From Candidatus Yonathbacteria bacterium (GTDB lineage: Bacteria; Patescibacteriota; Minisyncoccia; Phycocordibacterales; JACNGX01), in contig JAAXWR010000002.1 in NCBI GenBank assembly GCA_013334825.1, forward strand, positions 155,009 to 219,008: a stretch of DNA of 64,000 nt. The letters are read 5' to 3'. The position numbers were made by a program, and so were the translations under genes. The notes below the pieces were generated by a model. It had not been told where the DNA came from, did no database searches, and saw only the letters and a program-made list of their open reading frames with translations. Positions 2,151-47,114 of the stretch are shown piece by piece (position 1 is the first letter of the stretch; each line of letters starts with the position of its first letter).

Positions 2151-2512
2151 ATGTTTATTGTAACATACTCAATATTCTTAGAGCATCGGTTGCGTAACAT
2201 CGTCTCACGTTCCTGCGGAGAGGGAGGGGACACTCACTGCTCGGACTTCGCTCGCGGGTAGCTCGCTCGTCCTGTACTCGCGAAACCCACGGTTTCGCGG
2301 GCATCCCTGCCTACCGGCAGGCAGGCTTCACGGGTAACCAGCGTCTCCTCACAGGAGCAGTACACCTTTTGGATGAATCGTTCGGACAAGTCCTCCAATT
2401 CATCTCAAAAGGTCTTGCGAAAGCTCCAAGTGTTCGCTTTCTCACCCCGACCCCCTCCGCGTTCGAATCCCTTCCTCTCCTTATTCACTTCGTTCACTGA
2501 TTGTGGTAACTC

Positions 2513-2574: not shown

Positions 2575-3450
2575 TCACTTTGGAATGACGAACTGCTGGC
2601 CGTCGGCGGTTTTCACAAGTTGATAACCATTGTCTACCTTCGACCACTTCTTGGTCACCTTACCGCGAAGTTCCGACAAGCGACCTTTTACGATGAGCGA
2701 GCCAGTACTCAATTGCGCGTTCCAAGCATCGCTGGTCTTCTCATACACCTCGCGTGGAACTTCGAGCGTGATGTCGTGGGTGTTCGCCGCGTTGCGGATG
2801 TGCTTCGTGAGGTCGAGCGTGAACGTGGAGTTCTCGACCCGAATATTCACGAAGTATCGGTTGAGCGACTGGCGATCCACGAACTGGTATTCCGCAAGCG
2901 GCTTTTCCAGAACGTAGGTTCGCGCAACACCAGCAAACGGAACGGTAAGCAGTTGGCGACCGCTGGAACGCAACTGTTGCATCGCTTCGTCGTACTGCTC
3001 CTTGTTGATTTCGGTCTGCGTTCCATTTCTGTCCGCCCAGAAGTACTGGCTTTCGATCTTCTTCTCTGTGGGACGCACGACGTACTCGGCGATCTCGTCA
3101 TTGAAGACAAAACCCCAACCGTCGCCCTTACTCGAGACCTCCTGTCCGATCTCATACTCGTTGAAGGTTTTTTCATCGACGATAAGGGTGCGCGACTCGG
3201 CGGCCATCGCGTTCTTCGCATGAGCCCAAAGGTCGAGAGTGAATTGCTCCTTCTCGAATTTGAGAGTTACGAGGAACAACTTCTCTTCTCGAAGCTCGGT
3301 TGCATTCGCGAGAACCGCGACCACATCCGGTTTCGGATTTTCTGCCGGAGCCGCAGCAACTTGCCGCGACTGTTGATTCGGTTGCTGATCGCACCCCGCA
3401 AAGAACGCGAGGGCAACAATCAAGGTAAATAGGCTGGCTGACTTTCTCAA
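2575..3450 (-). CDS. Lipoprotein of about 291 aa with an internal duplication of roughly 140 aa.
   Basis: A TTG start at 3450 sits 6 nt downstream of AAGGAGA. The signal peptide is LRKSASLFTLIVALAFFAGC and ends in a lipobox. The FTLDL..H..NA motif occurs twice. Confidence 0.6.
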   Translation of the reverse strand: MRKSASLFTLIVALAFFAGCDQQPNQQSRQVAAAPAENPKPDVVAVLANATELREEKLFLVTLKFEKEQFTLDLWAHAKNAMAAESRTLIVDEKTFNEYEIGQEVSSKGDGWGFVFNDEIAEYVVRPTEKKIESQYFWADRNGTQTEINKEQYDEAMQQLRSSGRQLLTVPFAGVARTYVLEKPLAEYQFVDRQSLNRYFVNIRVENSTFTLDLTKHIRNAANTHDITLEVPREVYEKTSDAWNAQLSTGSLIVKGRLSELRGKVTKKWSKVDNGYQLVKTADGQQFVIPK

Positions 3451-3537
3451 TAGTTTCTCCTTATCTTTCGTTGTGAATGTGCGGTTTTTTGAGGCAAAAT
3501 AGCTCAATGAATCATGTGATATCTTAATATATGAAAA

Positions 3538-3683
3538 CCTTTCTGTCAAGAGCAAAACGGTTCTATTGAAGCTTTGATTTGAACTTATTTTGATATTGGT
3601 AGTTACGTAGCTTTTTTCGGATAAAACATACAGCAGTACATGTTTTATTCTCTTACCCCTCTGCGTTCGAATCCCTTCCTCTC
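3538..3683 (+). repeat. 146-bp direct repeat, copy 2. It pairs with 1541-1686.
   Basis: Direct alignment. It is followed at 3662-3725 by an inverted repeat CGAATCCCTTCCTCTCC..GGAGAGGAAGGGATTCG with a 17-bp stem. Confidence 0.9.
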
Positions 3684-4973: not shown

Positions 4974-5063
4974 TGGCGGAGAGGAAGGGATTCGAACCCT
5001 TGGTACCGTTACCGATACACCACCTTTCCAGGGTGGCCCATTCGACCGCTCTGGCACCTCTCC
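4974..5063 (-). tRNA. tRNA-Ser (anticodon GGA) with a long variable arm. CCA is encoded.
   Basis: Manual fold: acceptor GGAGAGG/CCTCTCC, anticodon loop CUGGAAA, T-loop TTCGAAT, discriminator G. Confidence 0.85.
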
Positions 5064-8100: not shown

Positions 8101-8220
8101 AAGTTTATCGTTTATAGCTTTCGTCTCCATATTTCATATTTCTATTTTCTTATTTCATCGTCTATCGTTTATAGTTTTCGTCTTCATATTTCATACTTCT
8201 TAATTCGCCTTTCGTATTCT
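8101..8220 (+). repeat. Tandem repeat of about 60 bp, two copies (TATCGTTTATAGYTTTCGTCTYCATATTTCATAYTTCT..), inside a CT-rich motif block.
   Basis: Read directly. Related CGTTTATAGTTTTCGTCTTCATATTTC strings occur at 39680-39706, and in reverse complement near 48300-48345. Confidence 0.7.
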
Positions 8221-8326
8221 TGCTTCATGCTTCGTGATTCGTGCTTCGAGTATCCGTCCCTATAACCCATCTCCTCTAACTCCTTTCCTACACGAATGCG
8301 TATTTTCTGTTATACTTTCTTGTATT

Positions 8327-21079: not shown

Positions 21080-21150
21080 GCGGAATTAGTTAAGTGGCAT
21101 AACATTAGCTTCCCAAGCTGAGATCGCGGGTCCGATTCCCGCATTCCGCA
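21080..21150 (+). tRNA. tRNA-Gly (anticodon CCC).
   Basis: Manual fold: acceptor GCGGAAT/ATTCCGC, D-stem GTTA/TAAC, anticodon loop UUCCCAA, T-arm GCGGG-TCCGATT-CCCGC. CCA is not encoded. Confidence 0.8.
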
Positions 21151-21478
21151 CAAAGGACGCCCTTCAGGGGCGTCCTTTGTGCGGAATGAGCGAGCAAACT
21201 GCTTTGCTCGCGTTGGGAATCGGACGGCTCGGCGATGTTGTCGCTTGCGACGACCGCGAGCCGCGTCCAGGAGTACTTAGCGGATTGCGAATAAGTGAAG
21301 CAATACGCTTAGTAACTCCGGGACGATTCCCGCATTCCGCACCCAGCCCTACTTTCATAACAAACGCATGTACACTACATGCGTTTGTTATGTGATTATT
21401 AGAAATATATATTATTGAGTGTTTAATGAAAGTAGAGCTGGGTGCGGAATGAGCGAGCAAACTGCTTGATATACATTA
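21151..21478 (+). repeat. Composite element downstream of tRNA-Gly. It contains a terminator hairpin, an inverted copy of the tRNA 3' end split by a CTGC-loop hairpin, an H2 module, a direct copy of the 3' end, a roughly 105-bp CCCAGCC hairpin and a second truncated inverted copy.
   Basis: 21180-21227 reads TGCGGAATG[AGCGAGCAAACTGCTTTGCTCGC]GTTGGGAATCGGACGG. 21319-21341 reads CGGGACGATTCCCGCATTCCGCA. 21342-21447 reads CCCAGCCCTACTTTCAT..ATGAAAGTAGAGCTGGG. The 24-bp string TGCGGAATGAGCGAGCAAACTGCT occurs at both 21180 and 21447. Confidence 0.8.
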
Positions 21479-24334: not shown

Positions 24335-24406
24335 CCCTTCGTAGCTCAATGGATAGAGCAACTCCGTCCTAAGGAGAAGATGTAGGTTCGACTCCCGCCG
24401 AAGGGA
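24335..24406 (+). tRNA. tRNA-Arg (anticodon CCT).
   Basis: Manual fold: acceptor CCCTTCG/CGAAGGG, D-stem GCTC/GAGC, anticodon loop GUCCUAA, T-loop TTCGACT. There is one mismatch in the anticodon stem and one in the T-stem. Confidence 0.6.
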
Positions 24407-24670
24407 CATATTGAAAAACACCCTTTAGGGTGTTTTTCAATATGTCCCTTCGGAGTAAGCCGACTGCTCGGCTTACGTCGGGAGTCGAACTGAGCACCAC
24501 TTTTGCTGTTGCAAAAGTGGTGCTCGACGTCCAGCGGTACTTATGGAAATGCGAGTGCCCGAAGCATTTCCATTAGTAACCGCGGGACGATTCCTGCCGA
24601 GGGGTTTTTGATTGTGAGCGTATCCCGCGAACCTTTCCGAGCAGTGAGTGTTCCTGCCGAGGGGACAGGC
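24407..24670 (+). repeat. Composite element downstream of tRNA-Arg. It contains a 21-bp-stem hairpin, an inverted 3' copy split by a CTGC-loop hairpin, and H1, H2 and degenerate direct 3' copies.
   Basis: GGGACATATTGAAAAACACCC..GGGTGTTTTTCAATATGTCCC, then TTCGG[AGTAAGCCGACTGCTCGGCTTACGT]CGGGAGTCGAAC. H1 is GAGCACCACTTTTGC..GCAAAAGTGGTGCTC. H2 is GTCCAGCGGTACTTAT..TTAGTAACC followed by GCGGGACGATTCCTGCCGAGGGG. Confidence 0.8.
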
Positions 24671-25264: not shown

Positions 25265-25400
25265 CCCAGCCCTACATTCATAATAAACGCATGTACACCA
25301 CGTGCGTTTATTTTGTGATTGTTGCATTTTTACATATTGCCACCTTTCATGAATGTAGGGCTGGGTGCCGAGGGAGGAAGGCAACTGCTTGCCCACAGTT
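25265..25400 (+). repeat. Composite element downstream of tRNA-Phe. It is a roughly 100-bp CCCAGCC hairpin module followed by an inverted acceptor copy and a CTGC-loop hairpin.
   Basis: CCCAGCCCTACATTCATAATAAACGCATGTACACCACGTGCGTTTATT..CATGAATGTAGGGCTGGG, then GTGCCGAGGGAGGAAGGCAACTGCTTGCCC. Confidence 0.8.
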
Positions 25401-25758: not shown

Positions 25759-26040
25759 ATGTATACGATACGTCGTTCAAAAGACTTTGAATTATCTATT
25801 AAACGTCTAAAACATGCAGGGTTAAAGCCGTCAGTAAAACATGATATTGAGTGTGTTATCGATTTGCTTGCTTTAGGGGAAAAGTTACCCGCGAAATATA
25901 GAGATCACAAATTACAAGGAGAACTTTCAGCGTATAGAGAGTGTCATATAAAAGGAGATTTGCTTTTGATTTATATGATAAGAAAAGAGTACATGATATT
26001 GATTCTTGTTGATATCGGTTCTCACGCGCAATTATTTTAA
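25759..26040 (+). CDS. yafQ: Type II toxin, YafQ (RelE/ParE superfamily).
   Basis: DHKLQGELSAYRECHIKGDLLLIY..GSHAQLF matches the YafQ consensus, and it lies immediately downstream of dinJ. Confidence 0.8.
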   Translation: MYTIRRSKDFELSIKRLKHAGLKPSVKHDIECVIDLLALGEKLPAKYRDHKLQGELSAYRECHIKGDLLLIYMIRKEYMILILVDIGSHAQLF

Positions 26041-26149: not shown

Positions 26150-26240
26150 TGTTTCGTATGTTCCCTAGCACTGTGCATTGTGCACCACGTAGGATGCACA
26201 GCACGCCACGTGGGGTGCAGGGCAATCGTACTATTCGTAC
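26150..26240. repeat. Palindromic element of about 90 bp rich in CACGTGG, copy A (MITE-like).
   Basis: CCCTAGCACTGTGCATTGTGCACCACGTAGGATGCACAGCACGCCACGTGGGGTGCAGGG flanked by GTTTCGTATG / GTACTATTCGTAC. This is the reverse complement of the copies at 39583-39666 and 41563-41652. Confidence 0.75.
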
Positions 26241-26309
26241 TTCGTAACCCTTAATTCTTGCTTCGTGATTCCAGTATCCGTCCCTATCACCCATCACCTC
26301 TCTCCTAAT

Positions 26310-26798
26310 TTAATTCCCCTTTACCTTTACACGAGAGTGTTTATCACGGTCTATTTTAGGCATGCGGATTGTGAGTAGTCCGTTGCGTTCAGTTGCTTCA
26401 GCAGCATCAGGGTCAATTTCTACCGAGAGGGGAATGACACGTGAGAATGAACCCCAATACAGTTCCCGATACATAAAGCCATCATTTTCGATAATACCCG
26501 AATCGTCTTCGCGGGTACCTTTGATGGTTACCTCGTTACGACTGATGGAAACTTCAAGGTCACTCGGATCAACACCCGCAATCATTGATTTGATAACCAA
26601 ATCATCACCTTGTTCATACATATCAACAGTGAGTTCTCCTTCCTCGTCTTCTTCTTCCCACATATCGGCAGCTGTTTCTTCGCGCTCTGTGGGCGATTCG
26701 TCTTCATCAGCGAATATGGTGTCGCGTTCATCTTCATCACGTGGCGTTACCGCGCCTGCGATGCGTCCGAACAGAGATGTGCGTTTTCGTTTCATCAT
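26310..26798 (-). CDS. Hsp20/alpha-crystallin family small heat-shock protein.
   Basis: Alpha-crystallin domain motifs (RELYWGSFSRVIPLSVEIDPD, GLLTIRMPK). Acidic N-terminal region. Confidence 0.85.
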   Translation of the reverse strand: MMKRKRTSLFGRIAGAVTPRDEDERDTIFADEDESPTEREETAADMWEEEDEEGELTVDMYEQGDDLVIKSMIAGVDPSDLEVSISRNEVTIKGTREDDSGIIENDGFMYRELYWGSFSRVIPLSVEIDPDAAEATERNGLLTIRMPKIDRDKHSRVKVKGN

Positions 26799-29741: not shown

Positions 29742-29854
29742 GGGAAAAGTATAGCATAAAGTAGGGGTTAGGTTATAGGGACGGACGGATATAGGAAAGA
29801 GGTTATAGGTGATAGGTACGGACATTGGAATCACGAAGCAAGAATCAAGAAGGA

Positions 29855-29885
<31 letters not shown>

Positions 29886-32818: not shown

Positions 32819-34312
32819 ATGAAACGCATCCTCTTTTTTCTTTTTAGTTTTTTACTTATTCTTTCCACAATCGTTTCAGATGTCTCTGCCGCAACGAGGT
32901 CGCTTTCTCTTGGTATGTCGGGAAGTGATGTGACGGAACTTCAGAGCAAGCTTATTTCTTTGGGGTATCTTGTGTCTGGTAAGAATACAGGATATTTCGG
33001 TCCACTCACCGATACCGCACTCAAAAAGTTTCAGTGTGATAAGAGCATTATTTGCACGAATGCGGCTGTTTCAGGGTATGGTATTTATGGACCAAAGACA
33101 CGCACGAAACTTGTCGCACTTACTTCATCTGTTTCTCTTGGTTCAGGAACGTCATCAAGTACCACATCAACGACAGTATCGTCCGCGCCATGGACGGGCA
33201 AACTTGAGTTTTCGGGGTGGATTCCGTATTGGCGTAAGGAAAAAGGTGTCGAGGATACACTTCCACATCTTTCTCAACTTTCGAGTGTGATGCCATTTGG
33301 TTTTACGATGAAGTCCGATGGTACGCTTGCTGATACTGCAAAAATAAACGAAGAGCCGTGGAAGACGCTTATCGCTGAAGCAAAGAAAAAAGGCGTGCGT
33401 GTTGTTCCAACGGTGATGTGGGGTGATGGCGAAACGATTCACGCGGTGCTTTCGGATGATACGAAGCGTGTTGCACTTGAAGATGAGATTGCAAAACTTG
33501 TGAAGGACAATGGCTTTGATGGTATTGATATTGATTTTGAGGCAAAAAAGCATGAGACGAAAGATTATTTTTCAACCTTCTTGAAAGGTCTCTATCAGCG
33601 TATGGGCAATAAGTGGGTGTATTGCACGGTAGAGGCACGCATGCCCCTGTCGCATCGATATTTGCCCGGGCAGACGATTCCTGCTGATGCCACGGACTAC
33701 GCTAATGACTACGCGGCAATGAACAAATATTGTGACCGTGTGGAAATCATGGCGTATGATCAAGGGTATGTGGACAAGGTGTTAAACAGAGCACGCACTG
33801 CACCGTACGCGCCTGTTGCTGATCCTGCATGGGTAGAAAACTTGGTGGAACTCGCCGCGCAAAGTATCGACAGAAAAAAGATTGTTATCGGTGTGCCGAC
33901 GTATGGATATGAATATTCTGTAACGCCAACATCATCCGGCTCATATCTCTACAAAATGCTCTGGGCGTTTAATTACAAATACGCGACTGATATTGCAAAC
34001 AAACTTGGCATCACACCGACACGCACCAGTGCCAATGAAATCGGATTTTCGTATGACCCAGCGCTTCTTGCTGCCGTTGCGCCAGAAGGAGATGATGTGG
34101 CAGGAACACAACACGCGCTTGCAGGCGCGGAGATTGTCGGTAATGCTGGTGCGACTGTGGATACCAGTAAGCCATTTAACTTCCTCTCATGGAGTGATGC
34201 GCAAGCGATTAAAGACAAAGTAAATCTCGCCAAGAAACTTGGAGTTCGTGGTGTCGCGGTCTTTAAGTTTGATGGGGGAGAGGATATGGGGATGTGGGAG
34301 GTACTGAAGTAA
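32819..34312 (+). CDS. Secreted glycoside hydrolase family 18 protein with an N-terminal peptidoglycan-binding domain.
   Basis: Signal peptide. PG_binding_1-like GMSGSDVTELQSKLISLGYL..GPLTDTALKKFQ. GH18 catalytic DGIDIDFE (DxxDxDxE). Confidence 0.75.
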   Translation: MKRILFFLFSFLLILSTIVSDVSAATRSLSLGMSGSDVTELQSKLISLGYLVSGKNTGYFGPLTDTALKKFQCDKSIICTNAAVSGYGIYGPKTRTKLVALTSSVSLGSGTSSSTTSTTVSSAPWTGKLEFSGWIPYWRKEKGVEDTLPHLSQLSSVMPFGFTMKSDGTLADTAKINEEPWKTLIAEAKKKGVRVVPTVMWGDGETIHAVLSDDTKRVALEDEIAKLVKDNGFDGIDIDFEAKKHETKDYFSTFLKGLYQRMGNKWVYCTVEARMPLSHRYLPGQTIPADATDYANDYAAMNKYCDRVEIMAYDQGYVDKVLNRARTAPYAPVADPAWVENLVELAAQSIDRKKIVIGVPTYGYEYSVTPTSSGSYLYKMLWAFNYKYATDIANKLGITPTRTSANEIGFSYDPALLAAVAPEGDDVAGTQHALAGAEIVGNAGATVDTSKPFNFLSWSDAQAIKDKVNLAKKLGVRGVAVFKFDGGEDMGMWEVLK

Positions 34313-34444
34313 CGAGAAGCAAGAATCAGGAAGTAAGAATCAAGAATACGGACGTACTGGAAAATAGAAATTAGGAAAATGAAATATGAATATAAACAAT
34401 CCGCCGGCTTGCGCCGGCGGACGTGTGTTACAGTAGCCGCAATA

Positions 34445-35488: not shown

Positions 35489-35624
35489 ATAAAACTATGA
35501 TACCATGTCGATTGATTTTTAGGGAGGGATTTGTCCTGGAGTTACTAATTGAAATGTTCTATGTATTCTCATTTTAATAAGTACTCCTGGACGCGGCTCG
35601 CATTTCTCGCGAGCGAGAAATATG

Positions 35625-35714
35625 CTCCGCCGTTCGAATCCCTCCTCGCAGGCAAAGCAGTTTGCCTGCTCTCTCCGCCCAACAAAAATCGCACCCTAAA
35701 GGTGCGGATTTTTG
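35625..35714 (+). repeat. Ser-tRNA-3'-like structured element, copy 3 of 3.
   Basis: CGTTCGAATCCCTCC, then hairpin TCGCAGGCAAAGCAGTTTGCCTGC, then TCTCTCCGCC and CAACAAAAATC, then GCACCCTAAAGGTGC and GGATTTTTG. It is preceded by the palindrome GCATTTCTCGCGAGCGAGAAATATGC. Confidence 0.7.
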
Positions 35715-35787
35715 AACGGGCGGGCATCGTGGTTTAAATACCAGAGCGGTGATACATCATAAGGGCAATTTGAGATAATTTCAATTA

Positions 35788-36618
35788 CTAAACTGAGACA
35801 TGTAGCTCGGAGGTTTGTAAAATTTCTTGGTGTAATTTTTCTATTTTCTCCTGATCCTCTTTCTGTCGTATTGCAGAATAAAATTCTGGATCAAATTTTC
35901 TGATTGCGTCTTTCAAGGTGTCTGGAGTTTCAATAACCACATTAGGATCCTTTCGCTGCTCCATTGTTCTTATTTGAGAAGCTACTTCATCCCAGAGTTT
36001 TTCGGCGACATCTTTGTTGGGCATAGTAGCAAGTTTCTCAATAAACACTTTTCTATACTTCTCAATCCCCGAGCCTATACGTGCATGAAACATTCCAGAG
36101 ATTCCAAATTGAATTGTCCTAAAATCAGGTTCTTGTAGCAGTAGTGTTTCTTTTTCTTTATCTGAAGCTTCTCCGTATTTTTCATTCAACATTTGCTTGT
36201 ATTCCTCAGTTTTTTGATAGAAACTAAGTTGATCCTCAATCTCTTTTTCAATTATTGCAGTACTCAGAGGTTGAACTCGCAGATCCTCGTAATATTTTGA
36301 ATTTTCATTATTTTCCGCTCCAAGTTTCTCCATTACTTTTTGTCGGTATGAATCAATTGCAATGTTAGTACTCAATAGATTTTCGGCATCAACATACAAG
36401 AATGAATCTACATCACTTTCAGATCTTGCTTGTTTCCCTTTAATCATTGATCCATAAATCGTTGCTCCTAAAACTTCGGGATTTTCTTTTTGAAGGTCTT
36501 TGATTGTAGCTCGAAAAGTGTCTAGACGAGCTTTTGCTTCATCTTGAATCGGCAATTCAAAACGCTTCTCCTTTATTTTTTCTTCAGTTTGATTATTTAG
36601 AGAGGCTTGCTCTTTCAT
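35788..36618 (-). CDS. Nucleotidyltransferase-fold protein (Pol-beta superfamily; KNTase- or CD-NTase-like), otherwise hypothetical.
   Basis: GATIYGSMIKGKQARSESDVDSFLYVD matches the GS..x9-13..[DE]h[DE]h NTase signature. The rest of the protein is K/E-rich. Confidence 0.5.
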   Translation of the reverse strand: MKEQASLNNQTEEKIKEKRFELPIQDEAKARLDTFRATIKDLQKENPEVLGATIYGSMIKGKQARSESDVDSFLYVDAENLLSTNIAIDSYRQKVMEKLGAENNENSKYYEDLRVQPLSTAIIEKEIEDQLSFYQKTEEYKQMLNEKYGEASDKEKETLLLQEPDFRTIQFGISGMFHARIGSGIEKYRKVFIEKLATMPNKDVAEKLWDEVASQIRTMEQRKDPNVVIETPDTLKDAIRKFDPEFYSAIRQKEDQEKIEKLHQEILQTSELHVSV

Positions 36619-36656
36619 ACACCTATTCTAGCTTAAATGCTCGTATTTATCTACTC

Positions 36657-36687
36657 GGGTCTGCCGATACTAAGTGCTTAATGCGGG
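36657..36687 (+). repeat. 31-bp direct repeat GGGTCTGCCGATACTAAGTNCTTAATGCGG, copy 1. Copy 2 at 37813-37843 abuts the tRNA-Ser(CGA) 3' end.
   Basis: Read directly. The two copies bracket the 36777-37742 gene. Confidence 0.8.
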
Positions 36688-36776
36688 CAACTCGGGTTAA
36701 GTACCAAGTGTATGAGACACAATAAGGCTGGTTTGGAAGAATTTCAGAGGCTAATCCGAGGTATGTGGGTCGGAGT

Positions 36777-37742
36777 CTATAATATCGACTCGAAGTATTC
36801 TTTAAACTCCTCAGAAGAAGCTGTTTGGTATTTTTCATAAAGGCTTTTAATTTCCTCATCCGAGAAAACAGATATAACGTCATGTGTTATTTTTAGGTTT
36901 GGTAGCTCTTTCTTTAGGAGAAGATAGAGGGCTATTTTAGGCAACAAATATTTTGACTCCTCCATTCCCTTAAAATGAATATTGCGTTCTGTTGCCATTC
37001 GAGGATCAAAGTTGTATGGCATGCTTGAGAATTCTCGACTTACATCATTCCCTGATTTTTTCATCTCGTGATATAGGCGAGTGTGAAAACCTCCCATTGA
37101 AAAAAGTATCTTCAAGTTTTCTTTTTTCTGGAGATCAGGATTCTGCTTCAATGTTTCAGCCAAAGCTTCTGGAAGTTTTTCTAAAATATAATCTTCGCGA
37201 GCCTTCTGCATGTCGGACTCAAATTTTGATACATTACCGATTCTTCGAAGCGTTTCCTCATAGGGCAAGGACTTATTTATGAGGTTGTTATAAGCACCAT
37301 TGGATGCATACAGACCCATAAGGTTTTTAAAGACGACATTATCATTTGGAACGTCTACAAGCATTACTTTCTTCTCTGATTTATACAAACCCTCGAGTAA
37401 CGAAGCATAGAAGTCTTTCCACAAAAATGGCTTTCCATTCTGCTTTTCCATATCCATCGCCTGTTCAGGGGTCAGAGTACCATTTGATACTTCGTTGAAA
37501 ATATCGAGTCGAGCAGAATCCCAACCGGCGTTTTCCTGAATGAGAATATCTGCGTTTTTTAGGCGTTCACCCACCGCTTGTCCGTTTTCTGCTGTTGCGT
37601 GTTTGTGAAAGAAGAAATTGGTTTCAATTTTGGGCACGTTTTCAATACCTTTTTCTCTCAGCAAAGAACCTAAATCATTCTGAGCCGAAGATTTTTCTAA
37701 GTCTAAATTATTGCTTTTTAACCCAAAATTTTGTCCTTCCAT
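36777..37742 (-). CDS. Hypothetical protein of 321 aa, inside a repeat-bounded islet.
   Basis: ORF with no recognised motif. It is flanked by the 31-bp direct repeats. Confidence 0.45.
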   Translation of the reverse strand: MEGQNFGLKSNNLDLEKSSAQNDLGSLLREKGIENVPKIETNFFFHKHATAENGQAVGERLKNADILIQENAGWDSARLDIFNEVSNGTLTPEQAMDMEKQNGKPFLWKDFYASLLEGLYKSEKKVMLVDVPNDNVVFKNLMGLYASNGAYNNLINKSLPYEETLRRIGNVSKFESDMQKAREDYILEKLPEALAETLKQNPDLQKKENLKILFSMGGFHTRLYHEMKKSGNDVSREFSSMPYNFDPRMATERNIHFKGMEESKYLLPKIALYLLLKKELPNLKITHDVISVFSDEEIKSLYEKYQTASSEEFKEYFESIL

Positions 37743-37840
37743 GTTTTTATTTTAGCTTAAAATTACCCTTTTGGTAATCATGTCGTCGGGTCGCACCACA
37801 GTCATATGACCATGGGTCTGCCGATACTAAGTTCTTAATG

Positions 37841-37927
37841 CGGAGAGGGAGGGATTTGAACCCTCGAACGAGTTACCTCGTTGCCGCATTTCGAGTGCGG
37901 TGCCTTCGACCACTCAGCCACCTCTCC
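37841..37927 (-). tRNA. tRNA-Ser (anticodon CGA).
   Basis: Manual fold: acceptor GGAGAGG/CCTCTCC, anticodon stem-loop CCGCA-CUCGAAA-UGCGG, long variable arm, T-loop TTCAAAT. Confidence 0.85.
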
Positions 37928-38349: not shown

Positions 38350-38421
38350 GGCCCTATCGTCTAACGGTTAGGACATCGCCCTTTCACGGCGGTAATCGGG
38401 GTTCGATTCCCCGTAGGGTCA
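38350..38421 (+). tRNA. tRNA-Glu (anticodon TTC).
   Basis: Manual fold: acceptor GGCCCTA/TAGGGTC with one G-U pair, D-arm GTCTAACGGTTAGGAC, anticodon loop CUUUCAC, T-arm CGGGG-TTCGATT-CCCCG. Confidence 0.85.
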
Positions 38422-38819
38422 CAAAACGCCAGCGCCGAAGTATATCTTCGGCGCTGTTGCGTTTTGTAGACCCTACGGGGAATCGAACGGCGCAAGGCGG
38501 TATACAAGATGCGCAAGATTGCGCATGCTTGTCGCTGCGCCGCGTCCAGCGGTACTTATCAGAATGCGAGCATTGGCGAAGCATTATGATTAGTAACCGC
38601 GGGACGATTCCCCGTAGTGCCTTTCGTGAGAATCGAACCGAGCACCACTTTTGCAATGGCAAAAGTGGTGCTCGATGTCCAACAGTATCCAGCCCCACTT
38701 TCATAATAAACACATGTGCTGTGATAGATTTTTTATCCGAGTTATGAGTATTGTTTATGAATGAAGCCTCTCATGAAAGTGGAGCTGGATAACCGTGGGG
38801 ACGATTCCCCGTAGAGTCA
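38422..38819 (+). repeat. Composite element downstream of tRNA-Glu. It contains a long hairpin, a contiguous inverted copy of the tRNA 3' end, a GGCGCAAGGCGGTATACAAG box, H2, a direct 3' copy, H1, a roughly 100-bp CCAGCC hairpin and a second direct 3' copy.
   Basis: 38467-38490 TAGACCCTACGGGGAATCGAACGG is the reverse complement of the tRNA's 3' end. 38599-38621 reads GCGGGACGATTCCCCGTAGTGCC. 38797-38819 reads GGGGACGATTCCCCGTAGAGTCA. The modules align with those of the Gly, Arg and Val loci. Confidence 0.8.
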
Positions 38820-41562: not shown

Positions 41563-41652
41563 CGAAGTACGAACTTATACGCTTGCCCTGCACACCACGT
41601 GGCATGCTGTGCATCCTACGTGGTGCACAGTGCTAGGGAACATACGAACACT
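41563..41652. repeat. Palindromic CACGTGG-rich element, copy C.
   Basis: GCCCTGCACACCACGTGGCATGCTGTGCATCCTACGTGGTGCACAGTGCTAGGG flanked by GTACGAAC / CATACGAACA. Confidence 0.75.
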
Positions 41653-41853
41653 ACTGAATACAAATAATCATGTTGGTGAGTTTGTGTTCGTATGTTCGTA
41701 CTCGTTCATACTTCGTAACCCCTCATTCCTGTCCGTCTCTATAAACCTATCACCTCTAACCTCTTTCCTATTTTCGTCCACTCTTATCACCTCTAACCTA
41801 TTTCCTGCCCCCTGCTTCTTGCTTCGTGATTCTCATGTTATGATATTCTCCAT

Positions 41854-43281
41854 ATGGAACAAACAAAACGAGTCATTACCCCCCAAGCGGAGAATTTTCC
41901 CGAGTGGTATCAGGACGTAGTACGTGAAGCCGGACTTGCTGAAGTCTCGGAAGTGCGCGGATGCGGTATCATAAAGCCGTACGGATATAAAATTTGGGAA
42001 CTTATCAAAGCGGAACTTTCGAAAAAAATTGAAGCCACGGGCGCGGAGAATGTGTATTTTCCACTCTTTGTACCGATTGCTAATCTGGAAGCAGAAGCCG
42101 ATCATGTTGAAGGGTTCTCTCCGGAACTTGCAGTGGTTACGCATGCAGGCGGTGAAGAATTGACAGAAAAACTTGCCGTGCGTCCGACGAGTGAAGCGGC
42201 GATGTATACGACGTATGCAAAATGGGTGCAAAGCTATCGTGATTTGCCGATGCGTCTCAATCAATGGAACAATGTCGTGCGGTGGGAAAAACGTCCGCGT
42301 GCGTTTTTGCGCTGGAGCGAATTTCAGTGGCAAGAAGGACACTCTGTATTTGCCGATGAAGCAACGGCGGTTGATGAAGTCTGGCAGATGCTCGGTGTAT
42401 ATAAAGACATGTACGCACATATGGCGATCCCCGTCGTGGATGGCAAAAAGTCTGATATGGAAAAATTTGCTGGTGCTGTTATGACAACGACGGTAGAAGC
42501 GATGGCACGTGATGGCAAAGCGATTCAGGGAGGCACGAGTCATTATCTCGGTACCAATTTTGCCAAGGTATTTGATGTGAAGTATCTCGGTGCTGATGGT
42601 GAACATCATTTGGCACATCAAACAAGTTGGGGTATGAGCTGGCGCAGTGTGGGAGCGCTTATCATGGCACACGGTGATGATAATGGACTTCGATTGCCGC
42701 CCAATGTGGCACCGATTCAGGTTGTCATTGTACCGATTTATAAAGACGAGAACAAAGATACAGTGCTTGCGTATGCGCGTGAGGTTGCGAACAGTTTTTC
42801 TGGTATGCGCGTGCATGTGGATGTTCGTGAAGGGCAGACACCGGGATTCAAGTTTAATGAATGGGAAGTGAAGGGTGTGCCAGTGCGATTAGAGATTGGG
42901 GGTAAAGAAGCAGATGAAAAAGCGCTCACGGTTTATCGTCGCGATACAGGAGTGAAAGAAAAGATTTCCGCTGATGGAGCGAAAGAGTATATCGAGAAGC
43001 TCTTTGTCGATATCCATGAGACGCTTTACAATCAAGCGTACGACTTTCTCACGACACATATTCATCGTATTGAAAGCATTGATGATATTGATGACCGTAT
43101 TGGTTATTTTGAAGCAAGTTGGTCGGAAACACCAGAATCTGAGAAGATGCTTAAAGAGCGTTTTGCCATGGTCTCACGTGTGTTGCCTCGGGAGTTTGAG
43201 GGTGTGGAACCAAAAAATACAAAGTGCTTTATTACGGGAGAGCCTGCGAAGCATGATTGGTATTTTGCGAAAAGCTATTAG
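41854..43281 (+). CDS. proS: Prolyl-tRNA synthetase (archaeal/eukaryotic-like short form).
   Basis: Class II aaRS motifs with the ProRS-specific layout (FPEWYQDVV.., RPTSE, HAQ..FQWQEGH) and the C-terminal zinc-binding tail found in archaeal-type ProRS. Confidence 0.9.
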   Translation: MEQTKRVITPQAENFPEWYQDVVREAGLAEVSEVRGCGIIKPYGYKIWELIKAELSKKIEATGAENVYFPLFVPIANLEAEADHVEGFSPELAVVTHAGGEELTEKLAVRPTSEAAMYTTYAKWVQSYRDLPMRLNQWNNVVRWEKRPRAFLRWSEFQWQEGHSVFADEATAVDEVWQMLGVYKDMYAHMAIPVVDGKKSDMEKFAGAVMTTTVEAMARDGKAIQGGTSHYLGTNFAKVFDVKYLGADGEHHLAHQTSWGMSWRSVGALIMAHGDDNGLRLPPNVAPIQVVIVPIYKDENKDTVLAYAREVANSFSGMRVHVDVREGQTPGFKFNEWEVKGVPVRLEIGGKEADEKALTVYRRDTGVKEKISADGAKEYIEKLFVDIHETLYNQAYDFLTTHIHRIESIDDIDDRIGYFEASWSETPESEKMLKERFAMVSRVLPREFEGVEPKNTKCFITGEPAKHDWYFAKSY

Positions 43282-43407
43282 TACGTGAAGCATGAATCAA
43301 GAAGCAAGAATCAAGGATACGGAAAAGTGACGCTCCGCACCGCCTCTCTGTTTTTTGTGGAACATATTACATCACATTTTTTCTTAAAAAAAGAGGACCG
43401 TCCTTTC

Positions 43408-43500
43408 TGTTCGAGCCCCGTGTCACCACGCAAATACAAACAATCGCAAGGGCATGCCTTGCGATTGTGTATTTGTGGGCGACACAGGACTCGTCCCGCG
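43408..43500 (+). repeat. Direct repeat of about 93 bp, copy 1. It duplicates the downstream hairpin, the inverted T-arm copy and the last 18 nt of tRNA-Val. Copy 2 is at 43676-43768.
   Basis: The two copies are identical over roughly 90 nt (CGTTCGAGCCCCGTGTCACCACGCAAATACAAACAATCGCAAGGGCATGCCTTGCGATTGTGTATTTGTGGGCGACACAGGACTCG). They bracket a CCAGC hairpin module at 43503-43606. Confidence 0.9.
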
Positions 43501-43743
43501 GTTATCCAGCTCCACTTTCATAATAAACACATACGCCATGATAGATTTTTTATCCGAGACGTAGGTATTGTTTATAGATGAAGTCTCTCATGAAAGTGGG
43601 GCTGGATACCGTTGGACGCGGCGCGGCGACAAGCACTCGCGAGTAAACTCGCTCGTCTTGTATACCGCCTTGCGCCGTTCGAGCCCCGTGTCACCACGCA
43701 AATACAAACAATCGCAAGGGCATGCCTTGCGATTGTGTATTTG

Positions 43744-43817
43744 TGGGCGACACAGGACTCGAACCTGTGACCTTCACAATGTCAATGTGACGCTCTAACC
43801 AGCTGAGCTAGCCGCCC
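43744..43817 (-). tRNA. tRNA-Val (anticodon GAC).
   Basis: Manual fold: acceptor GGGCGGC/GTCGCCC, D-arm GCTCAGCTGGTTAGAGC, anticodon stem-loop TCACA-UUGACAU-TGTGA, T-arm ACAGG-TTCGAGT-CCTGT. Confidence 0.9.
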
Positions 43818-43966
43818 GTGAAAAAAAGTATAGCATATCTCTAAAAAGTTTCCACTTTTTCGTAATTTCTTATTGCATGATATACTTAATTGTGTACTAG
43901 ATTTTTTACGTTCTTATTTGCTTGTATACTAACTTTCTAACCTCTTCATTTCCTCACATACTATCT

Positions 43967-44905
43967 ATGTCCACTACATACGACACCATCATTATCGGCG
44001 CTGGCGCCGCCGGACTCTCCGCAGGTATTTATGCTGGACGCTATGGCATGAAGACATTGATTCTTTCGCATGAACTTGGGGGAGAAACAGCTCAAGCGGG
44101 TGTTATTGAAAATTGGCCAGGGGATAAAGAAATTGAGGGCTTCAAACTCATTTTTCGTTTTCGTGATCACGCACTCGCGTCAGGCGCAGAGATTATAAAT
44201 AGCCCCGCAGTCTCTGCGATACGTGAAGGAGAACTATTTCACGTGACAGACAAAGCGGGAGCAGTGCATATAGGAAAGACGGTTGTCTTGGCGCAAGGGT
44301 CACGCCGTCGTCGCTTGGGACTACCAAATGAAGAAACACTTACCGGACGCGGGGTTCATTATTGTGTAACATGTGACGGTCCTGTATATGGAGGAAAGAC
44401 GATTGCAATGGTTGGCGGGGGAGATGCTTCAGTAAAAGGTATTCTTCTTGCCGCGCAATACGCGTCGAAGATACTTTTTATTGTTCGTGGAAATGAACTT
44501 CGCGCGGAACCAGTCAATGTGGAGCATATGCGTGCATTGGGAGATAAAGTGGAAGTGTTGTTTGATACTGAAGTAAAAGAAATTATTGGCACGAACGCAC
44601 TGGAAAAACTCGTTATTTCAAAGCCGTATCATGATTCGACCGATCTTGTTGTCGATGGATTGTTTGTTGAAATTGGCGCAGAACCAGAAACAGACATTGC
44701 CAAAGAACTTGGTGTAATCCTTGATGAATATGGGTATGTAAAGACAGATTGTATGATGTATACAAATGTCCCTGGTGTATCGGCGGCAGGGGACTTGGTC
44801 AATCATTTTGGGCATTTCAAACAAGTGATTACTGCTTCTGCTACAGGTACTGCGGCGGCAACCGCGGTGTTTGGGTATCTGAAGAATGCGAGAAATGAGA
44901 AATGA
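43967..44905 (+). CDS. trxB: Thioredoxin reductase.
   Basis: FAD motif IIIGAGAAGLSAGIYAG, redox-active CVTCDG, NADPH motif MVGGGDASV. Confidence 0.9.
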   Translation: MSTTYDTIIIGAGAAGLSAGIYAGRYGMKTLILSHELGGETAQAGVIENWPGDKEIEGFKLIFRFRDHALASGAEIINSPAVSAIREGELFHVTDKAGAVHIGKTVVLAQGSRRRRLGLPNEETLTGRGVHYCVTCDGPVYGGKTIAMVGGGDASVKGILLAAQYASKILFIVRGNELRAEPVNVEHMRALGDKVEVLFDTEVKEIIGTNALEKLVISKPYHDSTDLVVDGLFVEIGAEPETDIAKELGVILDEYGYVKTDCMMYTNVPGVSAAGDLVNHFGHFKQVITASATGTAAATAVFGYLKNARNEK

Positions 44906-45620: not shown

Positions 45621-46814
45621 TTATTTCAACTTTGACCGACGGAGAAATGCGGGGACAGATGACCAATCATCATCTTCTTCGATTTCAGTAGATTCTTGTT
45701 TAGCATTACCAACACTACCAATAGGACGATGGATTTCGCTAATGACGTCGCTGCGCTTATTTTCACGATCTGATTCACGAGGTGCAGGTTCGCGTGTCTC
45801 GTGCTCTTCAGTATGTTCCGCAAAAAGTGTTTGTGCGGGGCGACGACTATTTTGTGTGTGCCCAGGAAAACCAGAAGCAATAACAGTGATTTTGAGTTCG
45901 CCTTTTTTGAGTGAATCGTCTTTGATTGTACCGAAGATAACTTTTGCCTCTGGGTCGGCGGATTCGGTAATAACACGGGCGGCTTCCTGAATTTCGTGCA
46001 TGGTAATATCATCACTTCCAGCAATAGCAAAGAGAACCCCGCGCGCACCATCAATGGAGAGTTCAAGAAGAGGGGAATTGATGGCTGCCTGTGCAGCTTT
46101 TTCTGCACGCTTGTCGCCAGTTGCGATGCCGATGCCCATAAGTGCTGAACCTGCGTCTTCCATGACAGCGCGGATATCCGCGAAGTCTACGTTGATAATA
46201 CCTGGAGTAGTGATGAGATCGGAAATACCTTCAACGGCTTGGCGAAGAATGTCGTCGCACATGGCGAATGCATCCTTTGCACTGGTGTTTTTGTCTACTG
46301 TTTCGAGAATACGATCGTTGGGAACCAGGATCATAGTATCCACAGCGAGGCTTAGATTTGCGAGTGCTTGTTCAGCAATACGTGTGCGTTGTGTTCCTTC
46401 AAATGAAAATGGTTTTGTGACGACTGCGACTGTAAGTGCGCCAGATTCTTTTGCTGCTCGAGCAACAACTTCGGACGCCGAACTGCCTGTTCCTCCACCT
46501 AAACCAGATGCAATAAAAACCATGTCAGAGTTTTGAACTGCATCCATGATTTCCTCTTTGCTTTCTTCTGCGGCACGCTTACCAACGTCTGGATTCATTC
46601 CTGAGCCAAGACCACGGGTAAGATTGCGACCAAGATGAATTTTCTTTTTGGGAAGTGCTTGGTGAAGATGTTGAGCGTCAGTGTTCATGACAATAAACTC
46701 AACGTCTTTTACTTCGCTTCGCATCATGTGGTTGACTGCATTTGTGCCCGCGCCGCCGACGCCGACGACTTTGATACGCGCAAATGTTTCGATATCAGGG
46801 GTGACTTTAGGCAT
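45621..46814 (-). CDS. ftsZ: Cell division GTPase FtsZ.
   Basis: Tubulin signature GGGTGSG (GLGGGTGSSASEV), N-terminal KVVGVGGAGTNAVNHM, and a C-terminal acidic tail. Confidence 0.95.
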   Translation of the reverse strand: MPKVTPDIETFARIKVVGVGGAGTNAVNHMMRSEVKDVEFIVMNTDAQHLHQALPKKKIHLGRNLTRGLGSGMNPDVGKRAAEESKEEIMDAVQNSDMVFIASGLGGGTGSSASEVVARAAKESGALTVAVVTKPFSFEGTQRTRIAEQALANLSLAVDTMILVPNDRILETVDKNTSAKDAFAMCDDILRQAVEGISDLITTPGIINVDFADIRAVMEDAGSALMGIGIATGDKRAEKAAQAAINSPLLELSIDGARGVLFAIAGSDDITMHEIQEAARVITESADPEAKVIFGTIKDDSLKKGELKITVIASGFPGHTQNSRRPAQTLFAEHTEEHETREPAPRESDRENKRSDVISEIHRPIGSVGNAKQESTEIEEDDDWSSVPAFLRRSKLK

Positions 46815-47114
46815 AAAACGAGAATAAAGAATAAAGAAGCAAGAATTAAGAATACGTCCTGTGGCTACGTTAACGGATGTACTGTAATTATTCCACGAGT
46901 GTGGATGTATACTTGAGTATCATATCAGAGAGTGTGGGTTTATGAAAGTGCTTGACAGATGAGCAAGTTAGTAGGATTGTAATTATGCGAATACGTGAAA
47001 GGATGAAAAGATTAGTAAGTTGTTGTGTATATTGTATATATGAGGAAAAACAAAAATAGTCGGCTATGCCGACTAACTATATGATGTATGTTTCCAATTT
47101 TTATCGTTTCCTTT

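Follow-up and report, generated by a model that had tools for sequence, protein, structure and literature searches.

Nested-hairpin modules located downstream of tRNA and tmRNA genes in Candidatus Yonathbacteria and related Patescibacteria

Genomic islands and prophages that integrate at genes for transfer RNA (tRNA) or transfer-messenger RNA (tmRNA) are among the described systems closest to a locus found in a 64,000-nucleotide (nt) stretch of a Candidatus Yonathbacteria genome (contig JAAXWR010000002.1, positions 155,009 to 219,008; the whole stretch is referred to below as the window). Behind the gene for tRNA-Val(GAC), two identical 85-nt copies were found to be the flanking units, here named P, of one member of a family of non-coding, nested-hairpin modules, here named E. 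The order at the locus is tRNA 5' part, P, E, P. In Ca. Yonathbacteria and related Patescibacteria, modules of this family are found directly behind tRNA or tmRNA genes and share their strand.

Like E, tRNA- and tmRNA-integrating islands and prophages show a repeat of the tRNA 3' segment with its boundary in the T-loop, as for the attB of phage Ms6 in the tRNA-Ala T-loop (PMC1762012). They likewise leave the gene intact, use tmRNA as well as tRNA genes, form tandem arrays and have distal copies that decay. Unlike these islands, the E insert measures 100 to 190 nt and carries neither genes nor an integrase, and a single family is found behind many tRNAs, each time with matching flanks. The repeat at an E locus also runs far past the tRNA end, is palindromic and includes an inverted copy of the tRNA end. 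At tRNA-Val, the 3' part of the tRNA is repeated directly and one copy completes the gene, as in att duplications at tRNA genes; the insert, in which an island would hold its integrase, consists of 183 nt of hairpins only.

Cis-mobilizable elements (CIMEs) are att-flanked remnants of integrative elements that have no integrase of their own. E resembles them in being non-autonomous, with att-like direct repeats at a tRNA gene and an enzyme presumably acting in trans. CIMEs, however, span kilobases and are tied to a known parent and a single site, whereas E has a conserved structured core of about 100 nt, occupies many sites and has no known parent. The attC sites of integrons and the attP hairpin of the CTX phage are folded single-stranded recombination sites; attC carries the inverse core RYYYAAC and the core GTTRRRY. 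E likewise is an imperfect palindrome with structure conserved over sequence, a strand bias and the end motifs ..GAAC and GTT... Unlike attC, it is tied to tRNA genes, no IntI or integron platform is present, and the core does not fit: E loci end in ..CTCGAAC and in GTTCGAG or GGGACGAG, and no integrase was found among the scanned open reading frames (ORFs). Miniature inverted-repeat transposable elements differ in that the inverted sequences flanking E are derived from the local tRNA and are locus specific, and the duplication measures 85 nt rather than 2 to 10 bp.

Repetitive extragenic palindromes (REPs) tagged with CGTC are known without a dedicated transposase, and REPs nest inside target palindromes (PMC3733652). 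E shares with REPs and bacterial interspersed mosaic elements the high copy number of intergenic hairpins, their mosaic or nested arrangement and their insertion at palindrome centers; moreover, the second of its two hairpins (H2) starts with CGTC and ends with GACG. REPs are simple stem-loops of 20 to 40 nt located after genes in general (PMC3733652), whereas E is a three-way junction of 100 to 190 nt at tRNA and tmRNA T-loops with tRNA-derived flanks, in which H2 measures 60 to 125 nt, has conserved bulges and is joined to the first hairpin (H1). Group I introns of Patescibacteria interrupt the anticodon loop of tRNA genes (position 35/36) and self-splice. They are structured non-coding inserts at tRNA genes of the same phylum, as is E, but the tRNA in front of E is intact, and E itself is much shorter and has no match in Rfam, group I introns included.

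Analysis of the tRNA-Val locus (Table 1) revealed that the gene is located between the genes for proline-tRNA ligase (ProRS; 41854-43281) and thioredoxin reductase (TrxB; 43970-44905), both on the plus strand. The direct repeat behind it is exact over 85 nt, with a start-to-start spacing of 268 nt; by chance, about 1e-42 such pairs of exact 85-mers would be expected in 64 kb. An initial annotation of the window had described a perfect duplication of 93 bp. The direct repeat was confirmed but not its perfect length, because identity over those 93 nt is 87/93 and the additional bases differ at both sides. The contents assigned to the repeat, namely a hairpin, an inverted copy of the T-arm and the last 18 nt of tRNA-Val, are borne out by the coordinates. 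Read on the tRNA strand, P runs from a segment a (19 nt) through a hairpin h (45 nt) to a segment a' (21 nt). Segment a comprises the terminal 18 nt of tRNA-Val (C56 to A73) and one further base, and a' is an imperfect inverted copy of a that ends in ..CTCGAAC. P is an imperfect palindrome by itself, and the two copies therefore also form an inverted repeat. The hairpin h of the proximal copy (P1) was scored as terminator-like on both strands. The left boundary of the repeat falls between T55 and C56 of the T-loop, in agreement with the proposal that the 3' region of the tRNA served as the crossover site, and both ends of P lie in T-loop motifs (..GGTT/CGAG on the left and ..CTCGAAC/ on the right, the slash marking the boundary). 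The whole P-E-P region folds as a single long hairpin (-228.9 kcal/mol on the tRNA strand versus -206.7 kcal/mol on the other; z of about -16).

Table 1. Features at tRNA-Val and E copies elsewhere in the window (positions in the 64,000-nt window; R1, covariance model of E)
Feature	Position	Strand	Basis and remarks
tRNA-Val cassette (promoter, tRNA, P1, E, P2, T-run)	43363-43875 (ends approximate)	minus	blastn, alignments
Promoter-like site upstream of tRNA-Val, TGGAAA-16-TATACT with TG	43827-43854	minus	consensus scan; alignment with relative L111
tRNA-Val(GAC), intact	43744-43817	minus	ARAGORN; Rfam tRNA 68.5 bits; part 3' from T-loop C56 lies inside P1
P1, proximal copy of the 85-nt palindromic unit	43677-43761	minus	a 43743-43761, h 43698-43742, a' 43677-43697
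H1 of E, GGCGCAAGGCGG...CGCCGCGCC hairpin	43620-43676	minus	covariance model match 43486-43688
H2 of E	43494-43619	minus	conserved base GCGTCCAACGGTA...TAACCGCGGGA; usual apex replaced by CCAGC hairpin
CCAGC hairpin, separate palindromic module of about 100 nt	43506-43605	none	nested at H2 apex
P2, distal copy of the 85-nt unit	43409-43493	minus	85/85 versus P1; a 43475-43493, h 43430-43474, a' 43409-43429
E copy behind tRNA-Gly(CCC) (21080-21151)	21212-21332	plus	R1 96.5 bits; outside training set
E copy behind tRNA-Arg(CCT) (24335-24407)	24477-24596	plus	R1 88.3 bits
Solo E copy, tRNA-Ser-like flanks, 2.1 kb downstream of tRNA-Ser(CGA)	35525-35645	minus	R1 106.8 bits
E copy behind tRNA-Glu(TTC) (38350-38422), canonical H2	38475-38613	plus	R1 101.9 bits
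Second E copy in tRNA-Glu array, H2 apex = CCAGC hairpin	38625-38810	plus	R1 30.9 bits, E=5e-6

The 183 nt between the two copies of P (43494-43676) represent one copy of E, composed of H1 and H2. The initial annotation had placed a CCAGC hairpin and a 70-bp spacer here. The hairpin was correctly located, but the two are not separate pieces: a covariance model of E (R1), built from 40 non-redundant copies, recognizes them as one element (38.5 bits, E=5e-8), and the insert is a discrete module, as had been suggested. H1 at tRNA-Val is of the same type as H1 of the module behind tRNA-Glu (38489-38547). R1 finds six copies of E in the window, at tRNA-Gly, tRNA-Arg, tRNA-Glu (two), tRNA-Val and a solo site with tRNA-Ser-like flanks, whereas no E was found at tRNA-Ser(CGA), tRNA-Ser(GGA) or tRNA-Phe of the window with R1 or by sequence. 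The array at tRNA-Glu is ordered tRNA, hairpin, inverted tRNA-Glu end, E, the repeated tRNA end CGATTCCCCGTAG.., second E and, directly after it, a third copy of the tRNA-Glu 3' end. The tRNA-Gly and tRNA-Arg loci follow the same plan, each with its own tRNA end duplicated around E.

The CCAGC hairpin is a module in its own right. The copy at tRNA-Val is 85% identical to 38686-38798, and all 13 of 13 distinct copies are located exactly at the apex of another local inverted repeat. The host is the tip of H2, the tip of H1 or the point between a tRNA end and its inverted copy, as directly behind tRNA-Phe. Within H2, the hairpin substitutes for the normal tip and is not an addition to it; in the window it occupies the H2 tip of E at tRNA-Val, versus the H1 tip in the related metagenome locus L111. 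Copies are located at 43506-43605, 38689-38788, 25266-25364 and 21343-21441 of the window, at 2819-2917 of L111 and at 134-232 and 258-358 of locus L129. An ORF for a YafQ/ParE-type toxin (25759-26040) lies just downstream of tRNA-Phe and its CCAGC palindrome.

The sequences on both sides of E are derived from the tRNA. E ends in ..TAACYGCGGG(A) and is followed by CGAnnCC..., that is, by the T-loop, T-stem and acceptor 3' strand of the local tRNA. The junction lies in the T-loop, mostly at T55/C56, at the other tRNAs and at tmRNA as well. The T part of a' reproduces tRNA-specific T-loop variants (GTTCAAATCC, GTCCGATTCC) at 12 to 13 of 13 positions and ends in ..TCGAAC beside E. The downstream a usually equals the T-stem and acceptor 3' strand of the upstream tRNA and often runs into the genomic flank of that tRNA. 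Because several copies (L083, L089, L097 and L105) share the genomic flank of the gene, a is copied at the DNA level. A retro-copy of the mature tRNA end was also considered, since two copies (L120 and L123) have ..CCA where the gene lacks it; this was judged too weak, as the genomic flank is shared elsewhere. The inverted arm of P2 differs from a perfect complement of the tRNA end by the same three substitutions and one indel as that of P1. A snap-back (inverted templated) origin of P2 was rejected because its a' equals a' of P1 and not the complement of the tRNA end; P2 is therefore a same-strand copy of P1. In addition, a small hairpin with a conserved CTGC loop (e.g., AGGCAACTGCTTGCCT) is inserted in a' segments, for example, at 21185-21207, 24450-24475 and 35655-35675 of the window and in many of the loci L082 to L143. 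Its place is equivalent to the junction of T-stem and acceptor stem, from which the anticodon and D arms branch off in a real tRNA.

Searching with a strict H2 pattern revealed 62 metagenome loci and no viral contigs. A same-strand tRNA of one of many isotypes, or a tmRNA, ends 93 to 383 nt upstream in 43 of the 63 H2 pattern matches; most of the remaining matches lie less than 300 nt from a contig end, and a few are true solo copies (such as L110 and L136). The typical distance from gene to module is about 100 to 190 nt. In ProRS-flanking DNA of 80 other genomes (0.93 Mb), R1 gave no match, although the close relatives were recovered. Rfam 15 holds no family that matches E, not even when four regions were searched with permissive thresholds: tRNA and tmRNA are the sole models to attain or come near their gathering scores, and the others, mostly microRNA precursors matched on hairpins, remain far below. 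E was also not found described in the literature searched in full text. E is thus a family not found in Rfam or in the searched papers, which is anchored at tRNA and tmRNA T-loops in Patescibacteria.

To compare the tRNA-Val locus with sister genomes, as the initial annotation had advised, one relative was taken from the metagenome motif scan (L111, about 94% nucleotide identity) and two from a protein database (L144 and L153, ProRS 94% and 82% identical). All three carry the same order of tRNA-Val, P, E and P. Since this order is common to the window and the three relatives, the insertion is old and predates these lineages, in contradiction to the earlier view of a one-off 270-bp insertion footprint. 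The event had also been called recent. This does not apply to the insertion, but it is supported for the identity of P1 and P2, which match at 85/85 positions in the window, 73/73 with one 13-nt deletion in L144, 63/74 in L111 and 26/29 in L153, while the proximal P differs between genomes (78/86 for the window versus L144). Both copies in the window share three substitutions in a' that are absent from L111 and L144; the alignments therefore point to a recent homogenization or re-duplication in the window lineage. In L144, the repeat runs two bases into E (GAACGG). In a species-representative collection, ProRS identity did not exceed 69% and the locus of that best match was not syntenic, exact-protein look-ups of TrxB with two alternative starts gave no match, and the P0003 relatives (ProRS 87%) carry insertion sequence (IS) transposases in place of the tRNA-Val cassette behind ProRS.

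These comparisons bear on two further explanations. The first is that a palindromic repeat was wrongly expanded during assembly. The genome is a short-read metagenome-assembled genome (MAG), and palindromic repeats loop assembly graphs. However, reads of 100 to 150 nt, the length assumed for this MAG, would span an 85-nt repeat, and the layout, with differences specific to each lineage, recurs in four independent assemblies. In SRR11449211, a run perhaps not independent of the reads of the MAG, a Logan contig matches the window exactly and ends 30 nt into P2, exactly one k-mer into the repeat; this stop fits a k-mer branch at a true repeat if the assembly k was about 31. The three other assemblies with P-E-P and the contig stop make an artefact hardly credible. 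The second explanation is a local accident without any element family, in which slippage or unequal crossing-over at a palindromic terminator produced a 268-bp tandem duplication of 1.3 copies. Palindromes stall replication and provoke template switching, the direct repeats are 268 nt apart with nothing coding between them, and the region formally consists of 1.32 copies of a 268-nt unit (at this copy number, Tandem Repeats Finder returned no row for it). Nevertheless, R1 scores the insert as a member of a family with another five copies in the window, the P-E-P order recurs in three other genomes and behind many other tRNAs, and a simple tandem duplication does not explain a left boundary in the T-loop at tRNA after tRNA. 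A local accident is therefore very improbable; it is contradicted for the layout and survives as one possible route to the recent homogenization.

E loci also differ in presence, orientation and flanks. In L153, tRNA-Glu(TTC) is followed by a plain terminator without a' and without E, whereas two copies of E are present there in the window. Locus L139 contains a tandem array with a period of 171 nt and at least two full units. L085 and L107 share tRNA-Glu plus E, with a downstream a that is tmRNA-like in L085, and in the window the sequence after the tRNA-Arg(CCT) module (24590-24660) includes a 3' end that belongs to another tRNA-Arg type. A downstream a that matches a different tRNA or tmRNA shows exchange between loci. 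In L111, the tRNA-Val cassette (about 2621-3084), including the promoter-like site, which is kept and moves together with the tRNA, is inverted relative to ProRS and TrxB; no inverted repeats were seen at the breakpoints of this cassette. Orientation of the cassette and neighboring genes also differ between L144 and L153. The solo hairpin-a'-E-a unit of the window (35525-35700) and tRNA-Ser(CGA) (37840-37927, minus strand) are separated by two ORFs, one nucleotidyltransferase-like and one without an assigned family. The layout of 35525-37927 would be as expected if cargo DNA had entered between tRNA-Ser(CGA) and its old module.

According to the explanation that we favor, though tentatively and at slightly less than even confidence, the module E consists of non-autonomous DNA that, like tRNA-integrating islands, undergoes recombination at the T-loops of tRNA and tmRNA genes. 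This explanation draws on the T-loop junctions, the direct duplication on the same strand, the arrays, the differences in presence and absence, the exchange between loci and the recent homogenization that the sequences show. It supposes that the recombination is site specific and that an enzyme carries it out. E would enter or recombine at the T-loop by conservative recombination; the proximal P would give the gene a complete 3' end, leaving tRNA-Val intact, and the second tRNA end with its hairpin would be left in distal position, so that direct repeats bracket E. The distal P would thus be the displaced copy or a duplicate, and arrays of the form (P-E)n-P would build up through repeated events or unequal exchange. 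Very recently, the distal P would have been re-made or overwritten by P-P recombination (gene conversion, unequal crossover or re-integration), resulting in the identity of 85/85. The recombining enzyme would presumably be supplied in trans. The proposed target is plausible because T-arm DNA, a stem-loop-stem, serves known integrases as attB, for example, that of phage Ms6 (PMC1762012). Recombination also explains the duplication better than an ordinary transposon target duplication does, as the initial annotation had argued.

Several observations speak against this explanation. One family of E occurs behind many tRNAs, each with matching a and a', whereas a classical integrating circle would need a pre-adapted 3' end for each target, and the integration model leaves the origin of the inverted copy a' unexplained. 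The window, 64 kb of a 389-kb contig, has 64 ORFs of at least 90 amino acids; scans of 50 of them with Pfam and of three further ORFs with NCBIfam found no integrase, transposase or reverse transcriptase, and the Pfam matches of the 50 ORFs were housekeeping genes and one YafQ toxin. Clustering of the ORFs around the 62 E loci revealed no recurrent protein family, only spurious repeat ORFs and housekeeping genes. The orientation of E relative to the adjacent tRNA or tmRNA is constant in every case detected, which also fits a co-transcribed functional RNA. Finally, the consensus fold is more stable on the tRNA strand (-23.0 kcal/mol) than on the other (-12.0 kcal/mol), and on the tRNA strand G-U pairs outnumber A-C mismatches by 42 to 7 over all pairs. 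The bias is located in H1 and H2 (30 versus 6, manual count) and is absent from the helix P0 described below (22 versus 16). Because of the G-U bias and the better fold on the tRNA strand, one strand of E folds, either as RNA or in the form of single-stranded DNA. A model with an exclusively double-stranded site has no need of such folding.

The predicted fold was analyzed in the 40 copies. P0 arises from pairing between the T-loop and T-stem portion of a' and the beginning of the downstream a; P0, a single-stranded GAA, H1 and H2 make up a compact three-way junction. Paired cells amount to 93.4%, versus 82.1% in shuffles and 30 to 46% with slid partners, and 18 of 29 pairs show compensatory changes. 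H2 contains a conserved bulged A and an A-G mismatch, its invariant columns being partly forced by the pattern that was used to collect the copies, a further reservation about the evidence. Comparison of the core by eye with hammerhead, K-turn, group II domain V and tmRNA-like or permuted-tRNA structures gave no fit.

A functional structured RNA, co-transcribed in the 3' trailer of the tRNA or tmRNA, is a serious rival, even if we consider it rather unlikely. The flanks would be structural parts, and the RNA might be a processing, stability or termination element or a mimic of the acceptor/T helix; duplication would then reflect selection and ordinary unequal recombination, not mobility. The covariation of the three-way junction, the strand-specific G-U bias and fold, and the conserved bulge and mismatch of H2 argue for it, as does the placement of E, in all cases immediately downstream of the gene and sharing its strand. 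A hairpin and T-run appear only after the distal P in L144 and L153, and E is kept across relatives with very small genomes. On the other hand, E is missing at the orthologous tRNA-Glu of L153 and at three tRNAs of the window (both tRNA-Ser genes and tRNA-Phe), and it is therefore dispensable for individual tRNAs. Solo copies are located far from any tRNA (35525-35645 of the window; L110 and L136), the copy at tRNA-Val has its conserved H2 apex swapped for an unrelated hairpin, P0 shows no G-U bias, and a' could mispair with the 3' half of the tRNA itself. Furthermore, E may not be co-transcribed with the tRNA, because hairpin h is itself terminator-like.

Alternatively, E may move as folded single-stranded DNA or by RNA guidance, in a manner analogous to integron attC, the attP hairpin of the CTX phage or the ends of IS200/IS605; this we regard as improbable. 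Pairing of a' with a would rebuild a T-arm half-site, and strands would be swapped at the T-loop by either an HUH-type enzyme or a tyrosine recombinase of the host. In a variant of this route, P would be cut symmetrically at its two T-loop motifs, and the whole palindrome would become a long target duplication. The tolerance of G-T/G-U pairs is strand specific, the closing helix of the junction is tRNA gene sequence from T-loop position 57/58 through most of the T-stem 3' strand, both ends of P lie in T-loop motifs, and the modules are always found at hairpin tips, all of which would be consistent with such a route. Target-derived flanks would let one universal E serve any tRNA and would therefore remove the problem of pre-adaptation. 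However, no enzyme was identified in the scanned window ORFs or beside the 62 loci, where Y1/HUH transposases of the REP-associated type (RAYT) were likewise not found. The T-loop sequence GTTCGAR does not fit the integron core GTTRRRY, and the two bases of E included in the L144 repeat agree less well with a clean target duplication than with recombination or the decay of an array. The palindrome P would moreover be required at the target beforehand, which leaves its origin unexplained, and we know of no precedent for an 85-nt target duplication.

According to a more speculative proposal, to which we give a rather low probability, E would belong to a new class of miniature mobile elements that select their targets through base pairing and not through protein-DNA recognition alone, or a'-E-a would be released as a stable mimic of the acceptor/T helix with a cellular role. 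In the base-pairing version, a', a and E would fold into the three-way junction as single-stranded DNA or RNA, present a T-arm half-site and guide a host enzyme to a matching T-loop, and the flanks would be re-copied from each new target.

The window contains further repeats. A second, longer element type of about 290 nt (2180-2480, minus strand) has the same mode of attachment as E: it follows ..GGGATTCGAAC and ends before a tRNA-Ser-like 3' segment. A 3' fragment of it is located at about 24610-24650, and it is also present in L083, L096, L117, L082, L101 and L130. Its fold is better than that of shuffled sequences (z=-4.9), and Rfam contains no match to it. A direct repeat of 164 nt, 95% identical, is found at 1523-1686 and 3520-3683, about 2 kb apart. 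Each copy ends in ..CTCTGCG/TTCGAATCCCTTCCTCTC, i.e., in the 3' end of tRNA-Ser(GGA) joined in the T-loop (slash); the genuine tRNA-Ser(GGA) is located at 4974-5063, on the strand opposite to the tRNA end of the repeats. Two ORFs without a Pfam match lie between the copies, the second of which (2575-3555) extends into the beginning of the right-hand copy. Repeats with a period of 14 nt (GAATCAAGAAGCAA..) occur in intergenic DNA, where they follow gene ends at 43283-43323, 34309-34352, 29828-29871 and 46804-46856, and their reverse complements, together with a GTCCCTATAACCYATCACCTCTAAC.. motif, precede gene starts at 8207-8290, 26238-26314, 41733-41840, 58603-58685 and 62604-62702. These may be shared terminator-side and promoter-side elements. 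Inverted repeats 15 kb apart (26175-26230 versus 41578-41633, 56 nt, 93%; 26153-26177 versus 41624-41648, 25 nt, 100%) are located between genes, upstream of those for HSP20 and ProRS. An ORF of 838 amino acids without a clear family (60010-62526) includes about nine units of an 84-nt (28-codon) tandem repeat (60088-60867).

If E is mobile, it would be a very small, enzyme-less passenger that has colonized most tRNA genes and the tmRNA gene of bacteria with genomes among the smallest known. It would mark breaks in gene order, as in the inverted cassette, the exchanged flanks and the cargo genes between a tRNA and a solo copy, and a mobile E would drive rearrangement and island insertion in Patescibacteria. 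It would also be a practical marker of assembly breaks and mis-joins in Patescibacteria MAGs. If E is a functional RNA, it would represent a widespread structured family outside Rfam and the searched papers, linked to tRNA maturation in a phylum that lacks many standard factors. In either case, the covariance model R1 provides a direct handle for a genome-wide census.

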